From the IMG/VR virus record IMGVR_UViG_2660238209_000015: DNA of 4,429 bases; one strand, 5' to 3'. This DNA is from a virus. Its lineage: Duplodnaviria > Heunggongvirae > Uroviricota > Caudoviricetes. The notes beneath the pieces were generated by a model. It was not told the origin of the DNA. It made no database searches and worked only from the letters and a program-made list of their open reading frames with translations. Each line of letters opens with the position of its first letter. Within the stretch, counting starts at the first letter, position 1. Made by a program: the position numbers and the translations under genes. Shown here in pieces: positions 1 to 4,429 of this stretch.

Positions 1-890
1 GTGTTGTACTGGGTGCCGTAGGTATTTTTCCAGTAATACGTCGTGTCACCACAAATCCACGGCACATCTGCAGCACTGCCACCATGGCACTGCGCGTTAA
101 ACACGGAGAGGTCAGCACGAAACTGTGTCAGCATGGCTGTAAACAGCGCAGGTTGCTGTGCGTGGGTGGCGGCGCTCATGTCAAACTCTCCCTGCATCCA
201 GCACACCGCCAGCAACACATTTTTCGGGTTCTTCTGTAATGCAGCTTTGGTGCGCGCAATCAGGTCCTGATATAACGGTTTACCCACACCCCAGCGCGCC
301 GAATCCTGGCTGGCCCCCGTGTCCGCACTGAATGTCCCCTCCGCGCCCTGGGTAAATGCCGAACCACCACGACAGCATGGTACCAGCAGGATCCCCGCGT
401 TATTCGGGATATACGGGAGCAGTTTTTTGGCAATATGTAACCCCTGGCCGACACAGCCGTACTGCCCTTTGCTCAGGTCTGCCTTCGGATGATTCAGCGT
501 ACTCATATCCTGCACATCATGCAGGCAGTGGTCGGCCGGAATAATATCGTTATATCTGCAGGCAGCCCCACCCGGCGTAACTGTACTGCGGCGCGCCAGC
601 TGTTTAATGCGCGGATCCGGAGCATCGTATGAATCCGGAAGCGGAAGCCCTTCCCCGTAAGCCATTGCATTGGACTGCCCGGCCAGTACGATGACGTAGT
701 ACCAATCCGGCTCAGTTGCACCACTGACCACCACATCACCTTCTGCTGCAATCGCCTGCATCAGGGTATAAGGGGTTATGGCCACCGGACTACCAAACGG
801 CTGCCAGCCCTCTTTCAGTTTGTGTGTCAGCTTTTCCGCAAGGTCTGACGGCGACGCCGCCCTGACCACGTCATAGTGTTTAAATGCCAT
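1..890 (-). CDS. nanS: Prophage-type sialate (9-O-acetyl-Neu5Ac) O-acetylesterase, NanS-p-like; N-terminal 296 codons only, gene continues past the left edge of the window
   Basis: Manual minus-strand translation from ATG at 890..888 is open for 296 codons to position 1 (MAFKHYDVVRAASPSDLAEKLTHKLKEGWQPFGSPVAITPYTLMQAIAAEGDVVVSGATEPDWYYVIVLAGQSNAMAYGEG...). It is missing from the supplied ORF track, presumably because it has no in-window stop. A GQSN motif (catalytic-serine block of the SASA/SGNH esterase family) sits ~70 aa from the start, after a short N-terminal domain as in prophage NanS-p proteins. Strong SD GGGGAGGAA lies 4 nt upstream of the ATG. Position downstream of the tRNA cluster matches Stx-phage/lambdoid late-region synteny. 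Family assignment is from recalled motifs, not a search. Confidence 0.8.
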   Translation of the reverse strand, partial: MAFKHYDVVRAASPSDLAEKLTHKLKEGWQPFGSPVAITPYTLMQAIAAEGDVVVSGATEPDWYYVIVLAGQSNAMAYGEGLPLPDSYDAPDPRIKQLARRSTVTPGGAACRYNDIIPADHCLHDVQDMSTLNHPKADLSKGQYGCVGQGLHIAKKLLPYIPNNAGILLVPCCRGGSAFTQGAEGTFSADTGASQDSARWGVGKPLYQDLIARTKAALQKNPKNVLLAVCWMQGEFDMSAATHAQQPALFTAMLTQFRADLSVFNAQCHGGSAADVPWICGDTTYYWKNTYGTQYN

Positions 891-893
891 TAT

Positions 894-901
894 TCCTCCC
901 C
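894..901 (-). promoter_or_regulatory. Shine-Dalgarno site of the nanS-p-like gene
   Basis: Minus-strand sequence GGGGAGGAATA immediately precedes the ATG at 890; GGAGG core with ~4-nt spacer. Confidence 0.6.
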
Positions 902-1069
902 TTTCCGGGATTTTCCTCAACAGTTGCGGGCCACGGTCCGGCCACAAGGAGAATCAAAAGAGGAGAACCGCAGCCCGCAAAACGAAAAAGGCCGCGCAGT
1001 TGCGCAGCCTTATAAACCCTGGTTAAAATCCACACGATAAAAATGACAATGCAAGTATCTCATGCTGTT

Positions 1070-1095
1070 GCCCGAACCCACTCGGGCTTTTTTTT
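1070..1095 (+). terminator. Rho-independent terminator oriented on the plus strand, opposite to the surrounding phage genes
   Basis: Stem gcccga (1070-1075) / tcgggc (1082-1087), 6 bp with 5 G:C, loop acccac, followed directly by T8 (1088-1095). In the minus-strand reading the hairpin is followed by AACAGCAUG, not a U-tract, so it is unidirectional. Confidence 0.55.
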
Positions 1096-1413
1096 GCATG
1101 TAAAAAGGCTCCTGCGATGAGAAGCCTGGATATATGCCTAATCTCTGTATACAGCATGATGCCGGGTGCCTCCCGGTGAATTCTGCAATGACCAGACAGA
1201 ATCCGCAACTTGCCTATACAATACGCAACCAAACATCTGTCATTATGCCCCGCCGCTCAGGGGGATTCATCATGCAGGATTTTTTTAACAAACGCTCAGC
1301 ATGTCAGGCAACAGTCAACTGCCTGAATTGTGAGGCATTTAACATTTCACTGTCCGGTGTCTTTCCTGTAATAAAAAGCCCGCAAAAGAGAGTCAGGGCA
1401 GATAAGTGTGGTG

Positions 1414-1490
1414 TGGTGCGTTGTACTGGATTCGAACCAGTGACCGATTGCTTAGAAGGCAATTGCTCTGTCCGGCTGAGCTAACAACGC
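1414..1490 (-). tRNA. argO: tRNA-Arg (anticodon UCU), argO-like, as carried by lambdoid/Stx prophages
   Basis: Minus-strand sequence GCGTTGT-TA-GCTC-AGCCGGACA-GAGC-A-ATTGC-CTTCTAA-GCAAT-CGGTC-ACTGG-TTCGAAT-CCAGT-ACAACGC-A-CCA folds as a canonical cloverleaf: 7-bp acceptor stem, GGTTCGAATCC T-arm, anticodon loop with TCT at 34-36, encoded CCA. Confidence 0.9.
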
Positions 1491-1503
1491 AGAATACCGA
1501 TAA

Positions 1504-1569
1504 TGGACCGCCACCGGGGACTCCGAATCTCGCACAGGGTGACGTTCTTTCCTGATGAGCTAGTGGCGG
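1504..1569 (-). pseudogene. Degenerate tRNA-like element (possible argN-type remnant) between the two intact tRNAs
   Basis: Minus strand CCGCCAC-TA-GCTC-ATCAGGAAA-GAAC...GAGATTCGGAGTCCCC-GGTGGCGG-T-CCA. It has a perfect 7-bp acceptor stem (CCGCCAC/GTGGCGG), discriminator plus CCA, and a recognisable TAGCTCA D-arm. It is only 66 nt, with a truncated anticodon arm and a non-canonical T-loop (TTCGGAG). It sits 1 nt from the tRNA-Ile2 3' end and 13 nt from the tRNA-Arg 5' end. Confidence 0.3.
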
Positions 1570-1570
1570 T

Positions 1571-1646
1571 TGGTGGCCCTTGCTGGATTTGAACCAGCGA
1601 CCTGGCGATTATGAGTCGCTCGCTCTCACCACTGAGCTAAAGGGCC
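1571..1646 (-). tRNA. ileZ: tRNA with CAU anticodon, most similar in architecture to minor tRNA-Ile2 (ileX/ileZ type, lysidine-modified); reads as Met by anticodon alone
   Basis: Minus strand GGCCCTT-TA-GCTC-AGTGGTGA-GAGC-G-AGCGA-CTCATAA-TCGCC-AGGTC-GCTGG-TTCAAAT-CCAGC-AAGGGCC-A-CCA, 76 nt, canonical cloverleaf, anticodon CAT. The acceptor stem and TTCAAAT T-loop resemble E. coli ileX as I recall it, more than elongator tRNA-Met. Confidence 0.88.
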
Positions 1647-1686
1647 GATTGCTGAATAATAACGACGCATGATTAACTCCGCAATC

Positions 1687-2745
1687 TCATCCGTTACGAA
1701 TGATTAAATCCTGTACTTCCCGCACCGTCTGCTCAAAACGTTCAGTCTCCAGTTCAACGCCAGTTGCACGACGTCCCAGCGCCATCGCTGCTTTCACTGT
1801 CGACCCCGACCCCATGAAGAAATCTGCAACCAGGTCTCCCGGACGACTGCTTGCGCTGATTATCTGCTGCAACATTTCTGCCGTTTTTTCGCACGGATGT
1901 TTCCCTGGATAGTACTGCACCGGTTTATACGTCCACACATCGGTGTACGGCACCTGCACCGTCACACCGAAATACCGCCGCAGATGCTTATATTCACTCT
2001 GCAGCTCCGCATACTGTCGGTTCAGAGAGGCATACGTATCCACCAGCTGGTGGTGGGGCTTTTCCAGTTCACCCCGCTGATGCTTCTCTTCTGCCACCCG
2101 GGCAAACAGTGCCTGTAATTTCAGATAATCGCTTTCGTTCGGCAGCAGCCACTGACCGGCACTGAACCAGTGCGACACCATGTTTTTCTTTCCTGTGGCA
2201 TCTGCAATCTGTTTTGCCGTTATCCCCAGGACAGCGCGCGCATCACGAAAGTAAGCAATCAGCGGGGCCATCACATGCTGTTTCAGTGCCCTACCCTTCG
2301 CCTCATACCCGGCATCTTTCGGACGATACGGCCCCTGATAATGCTCTGCGAACAGAATGCGCTCTGTGGCGGGGAAATACGCCCGCAGGCTTTCCTTGTT
2401 GCACCCGTTCCAGCGTCCGGACGGCTTTGCCCAGATGATATGGTTCAGCACGTTAAACCGCTCACGCATCATGATTTCGGTGTCAGATGCCAGACGATGG
2501 CCACAGAACAGGTAAAGACTTCCGGCAGGTTTCAGCACCCGCCAGAACTGCGCAAGACACTGGTCCAGCCACTTCAGGTAATCTTCATCACCCGCCCACT
2601 GGTTATCCCAGCCCTCGGGTTTCACTTTGAAGTACGGCGGGTCCGTGACTATCAGGTCAACAGAATTTTCGGGTAACGACCGCATAAATTCCAGGCAGTC
2701 GGCGTTGATTAACTCACAACTGGATATTTTTACAGTATTAAGCAT
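1687..2745 (-). CDS. Orphan DNA methyltransferase, beta-class amino-MTase (N6-adenine likely; N6_N4_Mtase family)
   Basis: 352-aa ORF. Motif IV DPPY (…SVDLIVTDPPYF…) is near the N-terminus and motif I FxGxG (…DFFMGSGSTVKAAMALGRRATGVE…) near the C-terminus; this IV-then-I order defines the beta group. DPPY rather than SPPY favours N6-adenine. No restriction endonuclease partner is present in the window. Stop TGA at 1689..1687, 40 nt upstream of the tRNA cluster. Confidence 0.9.
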   Translation of the reverse strand: MLNTVKISSCELINADCLEFMRSLPENSVDLIVTDPPYFKVKPEGWDNQWAGDEDYLKWLDQCLAQFWRVLKPAGSLYLFCGHRLASDTEIMMRERFNVLNHIIWAKPSGRWNGCNKESLRAYFPATERILFAEHYQGPYRPKDAGYEAKGRALKQHVMAPLIAYFRDARAVLGITAKQIADATGKKNMVSHWFSAGQWLLPNESDYLKLQALFARVAEEKHQRGELEKPHHQLVDTYASLNRQYAELQSEYKHLRRYFGVTVQVPYTDVWTYKPVQYYPGKHPCEKTAEMLQQIISASSRPGDLVADFFMGSGSTVKAAMALGRRATGVELETERFEQTVREVQDLIIRNG

Positions 2746-2777
2746 GGATCATTAAGCCTGTCTCTGATAGGCTCATT

Positions 2778-2796
2778 CTGCTTTTGCGCAAAGCAG
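2778..2796. promoter_or_regulatory. Near-perfect 19-bp palindrome 33-51 bp upstream of the methyltransferase start (candidate operator or 5'-leader hairpin)
   Basis: ctgcttt-tgcgc-aaagcag: 7-bp arms (ctgcttt / aaagcag) are exact reverse complements around a 5-nt centre. Confidence 0.35.
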
Positions 2797-2837
2797 TGGG
2801 CCTGAGGTTTGCTTGTGAACCCAACGCATGAGCAGAT

Positions 2838-2868
2838 GGCTGGTGGGTGCCCCTTACACCCACCAGCC
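2838..2868. repeat. 12-bp perfect GC-rich inverted repeat (stable hairpin) in the methyltransferase upstream region
   Basis: ggctggtgggtg (2838-2849) and cacccaccagcc (2857-2868) are exact reverse complements, separated by a 7-nt loop cccctta. No adjacent U-tract on either strand, so it is not a canonical intrinsic terminator. Confidence 0.5.
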
Positions 2869-2881
2869 GCCCATTTACCAC

Positions 2882-2909
2882 AAATAAAAAAGCCTTCAGG
2901 ACTGAAGGC
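2882..2909 (-). terminator. Rho-independent terminator (minus strand) at the 3' end of the small ORF
   Basis: Plus-strand gccttcag-ga-ctgaaggc (2892-2909) is a perfect 8-bp inverted repeat (7 bp effective with a 4-nt loop), preceded on the plus strand by aaataaaaaa (2882-2891), which is a U-rich tract 3' of the hairpin on the minus strand. It overlaps the stop codon of the small ORF. Confidence 0.6.
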
Positions 2910-3093
2910 GTCTGTAACAACCAAACTGATAGTCTGCCAGACCCGCCATAACCAGCTGGGTCAGTATTAACTGGCAGCGTTCGCGTGAAAGGTAAGTATT
3001 CTGCGCAATCTCCCCGACTGTCGCCGGGTCGGTAACGCTTAATTCATTAAACACCACTCTGGCGGTTTCTGTCATATCCTGCTGTTTCAGCAT
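2896..3093 (-). CDS. Small hypothetical protein (65 aa), possibly a winged-helix/HTH DNA-binding protein
   Basis: ATG at 3093..3091 preceded by AAAAGGGAAAAAGAC (GGG-type SD, ~8-nt spacer). Product MLKQQDMTETARVVFNELSVTDPATVGEIAQNTYLSRERCQLILTQLVMAGLADYQFGCYRRLQS has a helix-turn-helix-like pattern reminiscent of small PapI/FaeA-type regulators (from memory, unverified). The ORF track extends this frame to 3216 (GTG start, 106 aa), but that extension runs through AT-rich sequence and abuts terminator T1, so the shorter form is preferred. Confidence 0.4.
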   Translation of the reverse strand: MLKQQDMTETARVVFNELSVTDPATVGEIAQNTYLSRERCQLILTQLVMAGLADYQFGCYRRLQS

Positions 3094-3216
3094 GTCTTTT
3101 TCCCTTTTCCGGTTAACGTGACACACCAATAACTCTTGTCGAAAAAGCCAGCAACCTGAAAGAACGGTATTAATAACCACCAGCGAATTTATTGCGCTGC
3201 TGTATATTACGGACAC

Positions 3217-3238
3217 AAAAAAACCACCTTCCGGTGGC
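3217..3238 (-). terminator. Rho-independent terminator (minus strand) ~95 nt downstream of the Q-like gene; tR'-like candidate
   Basis: Minus strand GCCACC-GGAA-GGTGG followed by TTTTTTT: 5-6 bp G:C-rich stem, GNRA-type tetraloop, then U7 (plus-strand a7 at 3217-3223, stem 3224-3237). Confidence 0.6.
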
Positions 3239-3334
3239 TTCCTTGTGCGAAAAAACTTGCATTTCGCCTCGCGATACAGCTTTGCGAAGCTTACAGGAAT
3301 TCAAGCTGTTTCTGCGTAAAAAAGCAAGCTTTTT

Positions 3335-3877
3335 TTATCGAAATGAATCGTGCATAGGTACATAAAGCATGTGTTCAGCCACGGCTAACCAACCTGCAAT
3401 ACGTTTCTCACATGTGCTGAAACACCATTCCGGGTGAGTACGATTTAAACATTCTGCCATTTTTCTCTTACTCATTCCCCGTCCTTCGTACCTTTGCCGG
3501 AGAATATTGATTAGCCCGGGATATTCCCCAAGCACCTCACTGATAACGCGATCAATAATCAACGCCTCTGTGTCTGTACAATGTGACAACCAGCTCTTCT
3601 GCTTCCCTCTGGTCATATCCCGAAAAAATGCCTCAAGTTCCGGTTTTTCCAGCCCGGATTTCTTCATGCTGCGTAAAACCTCATTAACTGCTGTTTTCGT
3701 CAGCTTTTTCGAAACCAGTAACCGGTTAAACATATTTCCGGATTTACCCCCACCGATATACGACCACCGCCCCCACATCCGTAATTTCCCCTGGATCCAG
3801 ACTGCTTCCAGCGTGTTCAGGCGTAAATGTTCGCCGCTTTTGCCTGTAATTTCCGGATATATCATATTTACGCTCAC
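3335..3877 (-). CDS. Putative late-gene antiterminator (Q-like) by synteny; function not confirmed
   Basis: 180-aa ORF with GTG start at 3877 (the first ATG is at 3865, giving 176 aa); stop TAA at 3337..3335. It lies immediately downstream of the rusA 3' fragment with a GTGA stop/start overlap, and is followed within ~100 nt by an intrinsic terminator, then the methyltransferase, tRNAs and nanS-p. This is the position Q occupies in lambdoid phages of the 82/DLP12 type (rusA-Q-pR'-tR'-late genes). An LRMWGRW segment loosely recalls a W-G-x-W segment in Q proteins as I remember them. No search was performed. Confidence 0.5.
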   Translation of the reverse strand: MSVNMIYPEITGKSGEHLRLNTLEAVWIQGKLRMWGRWSYIGGGKSGNMFNRLLVSKKLTKTAVNEVLRSMKKSGLEKPELEAFFRDMTRGKQKSWLSHCTDTEALIIDRVISEVLGEYPGLINILRQRYEGRGMSKRKMAECLNRTHPEWCFSTCEKRIAGWLAVAEHMLYVPMHDSFR

Positions 3878-4017
3878 TCACTCTCAATTTTGTAAATCTT
3901 CACGCCCAGCCGTCCCCCAGGAACGCGCTGACCGCGCACAATATTGATTTCATCAAACTGCTCGTCGTCTATGAGAAGTCCGGCATGCGTCAGCGCATCC
4001 AGTGGTGCTTTCAGGAT
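3874..4017 (-). pseudogene. rusA: 3' fragment (47 codons plus stop) of rusA, Holliday-junction resolvase, truncated at its 5' side by the IS insertion
   Basis: The minus-strand frame is open from the IS boundary (4017) to TGA at 3876..3874: ILKAPLDALTHAGLLIDDEQFDEINIVRGQRVPGGRLGVKIYKIESE*. This aligns with the C-terminus of E. coli RusA as recalled (…FDALTKAGFWLDDAQVVDY…KGGRLELTITEMGNE), with conserved DALT.AG, LDD.Q and GGRL. No start codon or N-terminal portion on this side of the IS. Confidence 0.65.
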
Positions 4018-4071
4018 TGAACCGCCCCGGAAATCCTGGAGACTAAACTCCCTGAGAAAGAGGTAAACAGG

Positions 4072-4398
4072 ATGACTAAAAATACTCGTTTTTCCCCCGA
4101 AGTCCGTCAGCGGGCGATTCGTATGGTTCTGGAAAGTCAGGATGAATATGACTCACAGTGGGCGGCAATTTGTTCCATTGCCCCAAAGATTGGCTGTACG
4201 CCGGAGACTCTGCGTGTCTGGGTTCGCCAGCATGAGCGGGATACCGGGGGCGGTGATGGTGGGCTCACCAGCGCTGAACGTCAGCGTCTGAAAGAGCTGG
4301 AACGTGAAAATCGTGAACTGCGCCGCAGTAACGATATCCTTCGCCAGGCTTCCGCTTATTTTGCGAAGGCGGAGTTCGACCGCCTCTGGAAAAAATGA
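4072..4398 (+). CDS. IS3-family transposase OrfA (HTH DNA-binding subunit), IS629-like
   Basis: 108-aa [111 protein letters not shown]; N-terminal HTH plus leucine-zipper-like C-terminus typical of IS3 OrfA. SD GAGGTAAACAGG upstream of the ATG at 4072. Confidence 0.9.
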
Positions 4399-4429
4399 TG
4401 CCACTGCTGGATAAGCTGCGTGAGCAGTA
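4395..4429 (+). CDS. IS3-family transposase OrfB (DDE catalytic subunit), first 11 codons only; -1 frame relative to orfA
   Basis: ATGATGCCACTGCTGGATAAGCTGCGTGAGCAG gives [11 protein letters not shown], overlapping the orfA stop. The A6 run (4390-4395) at the overlap is a plausible -1 frameshift site for an OrfAB fusion. Confidence 0.7.

Follow-up and report, generated by a model that had tools for sequence, protein, structure and literature searches.

The junction between rusA and IS629 in a Qin-like lambdoid prophage of Escherichia coli O111:NM strain FWSEC0005 is very probably one edge of a two-sided, IS629-associated deletion and not the site of a fresh insertion. The rusA reading frame runs open into the end of the insertion sequence, which at first sight has the look of an interrupted gene; taken together with the comparison of sister genomes, however, this open frame leads to a deletion edge around an IS that was already resident in the prophage. 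The window, by which we mean the whole 4,429-nucleotide stretch that was analyzed (positions 1-4429), is 100% identical to positions 3,696,257-3,700,685 of the FWSEC0005 chromosome (NZ_CP031912.1). The strain is a human clinical isolate obtained in 2000 in Saskatchewan, Canada, and is positive for stx1a and stx2a; it serves routinely as a laboratory control strain (PMC6787312). The window covers part of the late-regulatory region of the prophage, with the phage genes all on the minus strand. Positions outside it are given in the coordinates of the FWSEC0005 locus (L001) or of the corresponding locus in O111:H- strain 11128 (L002), a window position being equal to the L001 position minus 5,701. 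The features of the window are as follows.

1-891, minus strand: 5' part of the SASA/NanS-p esterase gene
1414-1490 and 1571-1646, minus strand: two tRNA genes
1687-2745, minus strand: DNA methyltransferase gene
2896-3093, minus strand: open reading frame of 65 aa
3217-3237, minus strand: GC-rich hairpin CCACCGGAAGGTGG followed by TTTTTTT, about 100 bp downstream of the Q-like gene, by direct reading
3335-3865, minus strand: intact Q-like late-gene antiterminator, 176 aa (Pfam DUF1133, PF06530; PHROG 753)
3874-4017, minus strand: rusA remnant, codons 75-121 and the stop of a 121-codon RusA gene, from translation and DNA identity to the intact allele
4018-4429, plus strand: left 412 bp of the 1310-bp IS629 (IS1203), its ends located in the source genome
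4018-4042, plus strand: left terminal inverted repeat (IRL) of IS629, matching the reverse complement of the right end at 22 of 25 bases
4072-4398, plus strand: IS629 orfA, 108 aa, helix-turn-helix N-terminal part of the transposase (Pfam HTH_Tnp_1, E 2.4e-12)
From near 4353 (L001 10054-10170): frameshift region into orfB, annotated in RefSeq as 'AL1L pseudoknot' and 'programmed frameshift'

What is left of rusA is the 3' end of the gene. Read from 4017 to the stop at 3876-3874, the remnant frame holds 47 residues with no internal stop, ILKAPLDALTHAGLLIDDEQFDEINIVRGQRVPGGRLGVKIYKIESE, a peptide that begins ILKAPLDALTHAGLLIDDEQ and ends KIYKIESE. Its DNA is 100% identical to the 3' end of the intact 366-nt gene (WP_000140024.1) in other O111 genomes, and the identity of FWSEC0005 to the genomes with an intact rusA breaks off exactly at window position 4017. 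The intact RusA of 11128 matches PF05866 (E 4.9e-16) and PDB 1Q8R (E 7e-22). In the alignment to 1Q8R, residues D71 and D73 fall on the catalytic D70 and D72 of E. coli K-12 RusA and the break point lies directly after the DLDN motif. The catalytic aspartates of RusA are D70, D72 and D91 in K-12 numbering, and PDB 2H8C is a D70N mutant. A full RusA domain (PF05866) comprises about 120 aa with all three of these aspartates; the window copy consists of residues 75-121 only, having lost the first 74 codons with the D71/D73 pair and keeping the D91 equivalent as its sole catalytic aspartate. The remnant also lacks a start codon, as the list of open reading frames for the window contains none of at least 30 aa that ends at 3874, and the 45 further open codons that precede a stop upstream of the junction, inside the IS, include no ATG, GTG or TTG. 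Because the equivalents of D70 and D72 (two of the three catalytic aspartates) are lost and no start codon is present, rusA is dead in FWSEC0005; RefSeq labels the remnant a partial pseudogene.

The element that begins at 4018, with TGAACCGCCCCGG as its first bases, extends past the window end to window-equivalent position 5327 (L001 9719-11028). It has the approximately 1310-bp length, the imperfect terminal inverted repeats and the orfA/orfB arrangement with a programmed -1 frameshift that characterize IS629, the orfB part being taken from the RefSeq annotation, where the element is named 'IS3-like element IS1203 family' (IS3 family, IS51 group). Over 1310 bp it is 100% identical to the 'insertion sequence:IS629' of phage CP-1639 and to the sequence carrying 'IS629 transposase orfA' in VT2phi_272, and the copies in four other O111 strains are identical to it. 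As orfA lies on the strand opposite to the phage genes, the left end of IS629 faces Q. The preliminary description of this DNA was thus right about what meets at position 4018, namely a rusA frame open up to the IS terminus, which is borne out by the translation and by an identity ending at 4017, and an IS629-like element antiparallel to the phage genes with its left end toward Q, which is shown by the orfA strand and the 100% identity. Chance resemblance accounts for none of these matches.

The same description held that the IS had split rusA by inserting into it, and this part did not survive an extension of the window to the right in the source genome. The right end of the IS was found there, but beyond it came neither a target duplication nor any 5' sequence of rusA, and the same IS is resident elsewhere in the prophage of related strains. 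Directly past the right inverted repeat lies CTGGCATTTTGATTCACTC, the start of a small ORF, with the stop codon of DUF977 following 18 bp on and then, past DUF977, an O-like replication gene, a ydaT-like gene and a cro-like gene. The flanks of the element read ...AGGAT on the rusA side and CTGGC... on the DUF977 side, with no duplication of 3-4 bp (GAT versus CTG).

The arrangement in strain 11128 provides the reference against which both edges can be read. Its gene order is Q, intact rusA, DUF968 (ydfU-like), a small ORF, hok, IS629, a beta-family gene, a sce7726-family gene, two small ORFs and DUF977, and the genes after DUF977 in this ancestral arrangement are an O-like replication gene, ydaT and a cro-like gene. 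Outside the affected segment the two loci are 100% identical on both sides, L001 1-9718 corresponding to L002 1-9718 and L001 11029-13804 to L002 15943-18718, with the right flank of FWSEC0005 matching L002 from position 15943 onward. The two IS629 copies (L001 9719-11028 and L002 11562-12871) are base-for-base identical and in the same orientation, that of 11128 lying 1.84 kb further from Q than that of FWSEC0005. To the left of the IS, FWSEC0005 is without L002 9719-11561 (1,843 bp), which carries the first 74 codons of rusA, DUF968, the small ORF and hok; to the right it is without L002 12872-15942 (3,071 bp), which carries the beta-family and sce7726 genes and two small ORFs.

The 11128 arrangement, the ancestral one in this reading, is preserved in many other strains. 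At least 37 complete genomes have an intact rusA together with the hok/IS junction at 100% identity; almost all of them bear an O111 label or match O111 strains that are known. FWSEC0005 has no IS copy at the hok site. The rusA/IS junction, by comparison, is present in one of 5,426 complete E. coli genomes, FWSEC0005 itself, and the right junction of this strain is likewise unique, the other genomes that cover the query joining the IS 26 bp further into DUF977. In the three strains for which the flanks were read, 11128 included, the hok-site IS629 is bordered by a 3-bp duplication, ATC, and because of this duplication in 11128 the hok-site copy is best regarded as a simple insertion. An empty hok site was not obtained from the non-O111 strain 97-3250, which has the beta/sce7726 segment in a different, Qin-type arrangement. 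Intermediates of the FWSEC0005 lineage, either an IS in rusA with a duplication or a deletion on one side only, were absent among the complete genomes.

Other strains carry further variants of the same prophage segment. TW05614 has a second direct IS629 inside a small ORF with the duplication TAT, and RM9322 has a second direct IS629 at the 3' end of DUF977 with the duplication CAC. In E2855 and many others there is a single IS629 with a left flank of the 11128 type (hok) and a right flank of the RM9322 type (DUF977), everything between having gone, which is what recombination between two direct IS629 copies would be expected to leave. FWSEC0005 did not descend from a product of the E2855 type, because the RM9322 target site is uninterrupted in FWSEC0005; judged from these flanks, its right-hand deletion is independent and its left-hand deletion unique.

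We therefore favor a scheme in which an ancestor carried IS629 as a resident at the hok site, between the early genes and Q, with DNA then being lost on both sides while the element was kept complete and in unchanged orientation. Two routes could lead to this end state. Extra direct copies of IS629 may have inserted nearby, with homologous recombination between copies removing the intervening DNA, or the DNA adjacent to the IS may have been deleted in a process dependent on the transposase or on IEE. Both routes fit the end state equally well and are given roughly equal weight, the order and the mechanism of the two deletions not being readable from one end-state genome.

In its specific form the first route, to which we assign an even chance, calls for one direct IS629 insertion in rusA and another 18 bp past the DUF977 stop, with RecA-dependent recombination between copies then taking out the DNA in between. 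The neighboring site, 26 bp away, offers the full series that such a route would generate, with one copy in 11128, two direct copies in RM9322 and a recombined copy with mixed flanks in E2855, while TW05614 has another direct copy nearby and all copies are 100% identical and hence good substrates for recombination. Against this, two more insertions would be needed in the FWSEC0005 lineage, neither of which is present in any of the 5,426 genomes, and the end product would be indistinguishable from that of adjacent deletion.

The second route, which we place slightly short of even, would consist of two transposase-dependent and possibly IEE-enhanced adjacent deletions, one at each IS629 end, that join an IS end to a new site close by and leave no target duplication. 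The two exact IS ends and the missing duplication agree with this, as does the observation that an IS3 transposase together with IEE gave adjacent deletions experimentally (PMC8860574). IEE-dependent deletions adjacent to IS629, some of only a few bases and others exceeding 40 kb, are moreover reported in a passage of PMC9943667 that cites Kusumoto 2011. However, in a study that discusses the model of IS629/IEE adjacent deletion, copy-out-paste-in transposition is not expected to yield IS-retaining deletions easily (bioRxiv 10.1101/2023.06.07.543989).

That several direct IS629 copies were collapsed during assembly, with the intervening DNA dropped, is very unlikely. IS629 occurs at about 39 places in the FWSEC0005 chromosome, repeats are the usual cause of collapse, and a collapse of direct IS repeats would look the same as what we see; however, the chromosome was closed from 252x MinION coverage and Illumina 8-kb mate pairs with Canu and Unicycler (PMC6787312), by which a 1.3-kb repeat is easily spanned, the beta/sce7726 segment is found nowhere in the assembly at an identity of at least 99.6%, and the rusA/IRL junction must be real even under collapse. 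Refuted as a full account is a simple transposition of IS629 into an intact rusA, with the halves of the gene on either side and a target duplication of 3-4 bp, which would account for the open frame and the complete IS end and would resemble the insertions that IS629 makes in the same prophage of sister strains (ATC, TAT and CAC), but which is at odds with a right flank formed by the 3' region of DUF977 and not by rusA, with GAT and CTG flanks that form no duplication, and with an identical IS at the hok site of at least 37 related genomes where FWSEC0005 has none. An insertion into rusA as the first step, followed by recombination with the resident copy, is possible.

The Q-like gene is intact and now lies 152 bp from the left end of IS629. 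Its family assignment was based on Pfam and PHROGs rather than on the PDB search: DUF1133 is the best family at 367 bits, PF06530 (Phage_antitermQ) reaches 35.2 bits where the cutoff is 26, and the protein matches PHROG 753, 'anti-termination protein Q-like', with an E value of 3.5e-74. With PF06530 above threshold and the match to PHROG 753, the proposal that the gene next to rusA encodes a Q-like antiterminator stands. The PDB sequence search gave a weak match to the phage 21 Q structures 6P18 and 6JNX (E 0.14), and the protein appears to be distantly related to phage 21 Q. The gene and its protein (WP_000640048.1) are unchanged across FWSEC0005 and the sister strains. The Q start codon lies 8 bp past the rusA stop, with the ribosome-binding region inside the rusA remnant. 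Antiterminators of the Q type act at a late promoter and terminator downstream (pR', qut, tR') and so permit read-through. On the other side of Q, the hairpin at 3217-3237 sits where late-gene control in lambda and phage 21 would lead one to expect tR', the terminator of the late operon that Q overrides, and it is a putative terminator of this kind; the same stem was also picked up on the plus strand by the terminator scan. A query of Q and rusA matches three further places in the FWSEC0005 chromosome, and Q might be supplied in trans from there.

Transcription from the early region has to pass through 1,310 nt of antisense IS629 and the untranslated rusA remnant before it reaches Q. The antisense IS629 RNA contains 393 C and 314 G, individual 100-nt windows having for example 36 C and 18 G, and it can be read for at most 159 codons without meeting a stop; this excess of C over G together with the lack of a long translated frame makes for a composition that favors Rho-dependent termination. 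Such termination, combined with a loss of translational coupling, may plausibly lower Q expression. Polarity from the antisense IS, if there is any, would nonetheless predate the rusA event and would not be specific to it, because in at least 37 relatives the early genes are already separated from Q by the same IS, oriented in the same way. The ancestral arrangement also had, between the IS and Q, a good terminator-like hairpin where hok ends (AACCCGCTTCGGCGGGTT and then a run of T; L002 11369-11352, minus strand), which the FWSEC0005 deletion took out, so that the net effect on Q could go either way and the net effect on the late genes is not predictable from sequence. A scan of the stretch from IRL to Q and of the IS antisense strand recovered no consensus sigma-70 promoter, its promoter and terminator counts being at or below shuffle expectation, a level at which weak promoters are neither established nor excluded. 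The right inverted repeat holds a weak hairpin with a T-rich tail (L001 11019-11007, minus strand), which is within chance expectation. Our literature search returned no report of this rusA/IS629 junction or of IS629 polarity on Q.

The locus invites comparison with the insertion-deletion-excision model for IS3-family elements (Kanai et al. 2022, PMC8860574), in that an insertion and the ensuing deletion of adjacent DNA place genes that were once far apart, the DUF977/replication module and Q, on the two sides of a single IS. In contrast to the model, there is no excision at the FWSEC0005 locus, and a selective benefit or a fused transcript would be hypothetical here. The loss on both sides of the IS has removed 4.9 kb of accessory genes and the hok hairpin and has left only the IS between the early replication module (the O-like gene and DUF977) and Q. 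We consider it very unlikely that the locus is a natural intermediate of this route to new operons. If it were, an unrecognized antisense IS629 promoter or a later IEE-driven excision would put Q, and with it late-gene expression, under new control.

Other rearrangements beside rusA or around IS629 provide further points of reference. Mahdi et al. reportedly found in 1996 that in the K-12 alleles rus-1 and rus-2 the rusA of prophage DLP12 is switched on by an IS2 or IS10 element inserted upstream of it, with suppression of ruv mutations. The parallel is superficial. The FWSEC0005 locus shares with these alleles an IS beside the rusA of a cryptic prophage in the nin-Q region, but the outcome is the opposite, as the K-12 gene is intact and expressed and the FWSEC0005 gene is, from its sequence, dead. 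The recombination between direct IS copies that leads from RM9322 to E2855 yields, as at the FWSEC0005 locus, a single hybrid IS with non-matching flanks, no duplication and a loss of genes, although two-copy intermediates are hypothetical in the case of FWSEC0005.

That IS629/IS1203 generates structural polymorphism in EHEC prophages was reportedly described by Ooka in 2009 and by Kusumoto in 2011. In O157, IS629 is regarded as a main driver of prophage diversity (Yin 2015, PMC4587872), and in prophages of enterohaemorrhagic E. coli as a main driver of structural variation (PMC4587872; PMC9943667). Prophages of O157 Sakai and O157 Stx2a prophages share with the locus described here the IS629 element itself, the host and the kind of target (a lambdoid prophage in EHEC) as well as the outcomes, which are truncated genes, missing DNA next to the IS and divergence among closely related strains. 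What sets FWSEC0005 apart is its junction, rusA codon 74/75 to IRL, found in one of 5,426 genomes, and one resident copy that has lost both of its flanks. The kind of event is thus already known, being ordinary IS629-driven prophage decay in enterohaemorrhagic E. coli, and a change in Q or late-gene output would have no obvious wider consequence, because the examined part of the prophage is free of stx genes. For readings made from sequence alone it holds a caution, in that a frame open into an IS end is no proof of an insertion there. The event leaves the FWSEC0005 prophage without rusA, the DUF968 gene, hok and a two-gene module resembling a candidate defence system, and across its relatives a single prophage of the O111 lineage displays a simple insertion, second IS copies nearby, recombination of one copy with another and a two-sided deletion.

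Downstream of the Q-like gene of the FWSEC0005 prophage, the phage-gene strand carries a promoter-like stretch followed by a hairpin, and further on lies a pair of tRNA genes.

Window 3217-3330, minus strand: TTGAAT ... TGTATC stretch, then hairpin CCACCGGAAGGTGG and T7, 3' of Q
Window 1571-1646, minus strand: tRNA gene (ARAGORN, tRNA-Met with anticodon CAT; RefSeq, tRNA-Ile)

In its sequence, the first of these resembles a late promoter followed by tR', the scan tool having reported the CCACCGGAAGGTGG hairpin stem on the plus strand only. The CAU anticodon of ileZ-type tRNAs is decoded as Ile once lysidine-modified, and the tRNA at 1571-1646, which is adjoined by tRNA-Arg(TCT) at 1414-1490, is of this type, as is usual in Stx-like phages. 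The stretch from the tRNAs to the nanS-p-like esterase contains no stx genes.

The immunity and replication region of the same prophage (L001, the FWSEC0005 locus) harbors several further genes.

L001 13316-14179 and 11046-13218: prophage immunity and replication region

Besides a toxin-antitoxin pair (relBE), it contains a 'toxin' gene of the YdaT family, and the PHROG matched by the DUF977 gene bears the name 'Ren-like exclusion protein'. The prophage may be replication-defective irrespective of the IS, because the annotation shows no helicase loader gene of DnaC or P type adjoining the O-like gene in L001.

At 5.13 Mb, the FWSEC0005 assembly is the smallest among the O111 genomes listed, the others measuring 5.2-5.8 Mb. 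No plasmid was detected in this strain (PMC6787312), and the combination fits extensive DNA loss in a long-kept laboratory control strain. Its chromosome has about 39 sites that match an IS629 query.

The corresponding locus of O111:H- 11128 (L002) holds further features around its resident IS629.

L002 11438-11578: hok/gef gene of 11128-type strains, with IS629 at its 5' end
L002 11352-11369, phage-gene strand: strong terminator-like hairpin after hok
L002 13464-15099: divergent beta-family and sce7726-family gene pair, products matching PADLOC models

The IS629 copy resident in 11128-type strains sits at the 5' end of hok/gef, a gene that was probably already disrupted, as the start of the annotated CDS falls within the element. 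The divergent pair is missing from FWSEC0005, where its expected place is right of the IS, and is likewise missing from E2855-type strains. Its beta-family protein matched PD-Lambda-2_C (E 1e-40) and its sce7726-family protein matched 'cll' (E 2e-28), both models of candidate anti-phage defence proteins, indicating that the pair is a probable defence module. Given its loss from both FWSEC0005 and E2855-type strains, IS629 activity leads this prophage both to gain and to lose the probable module.
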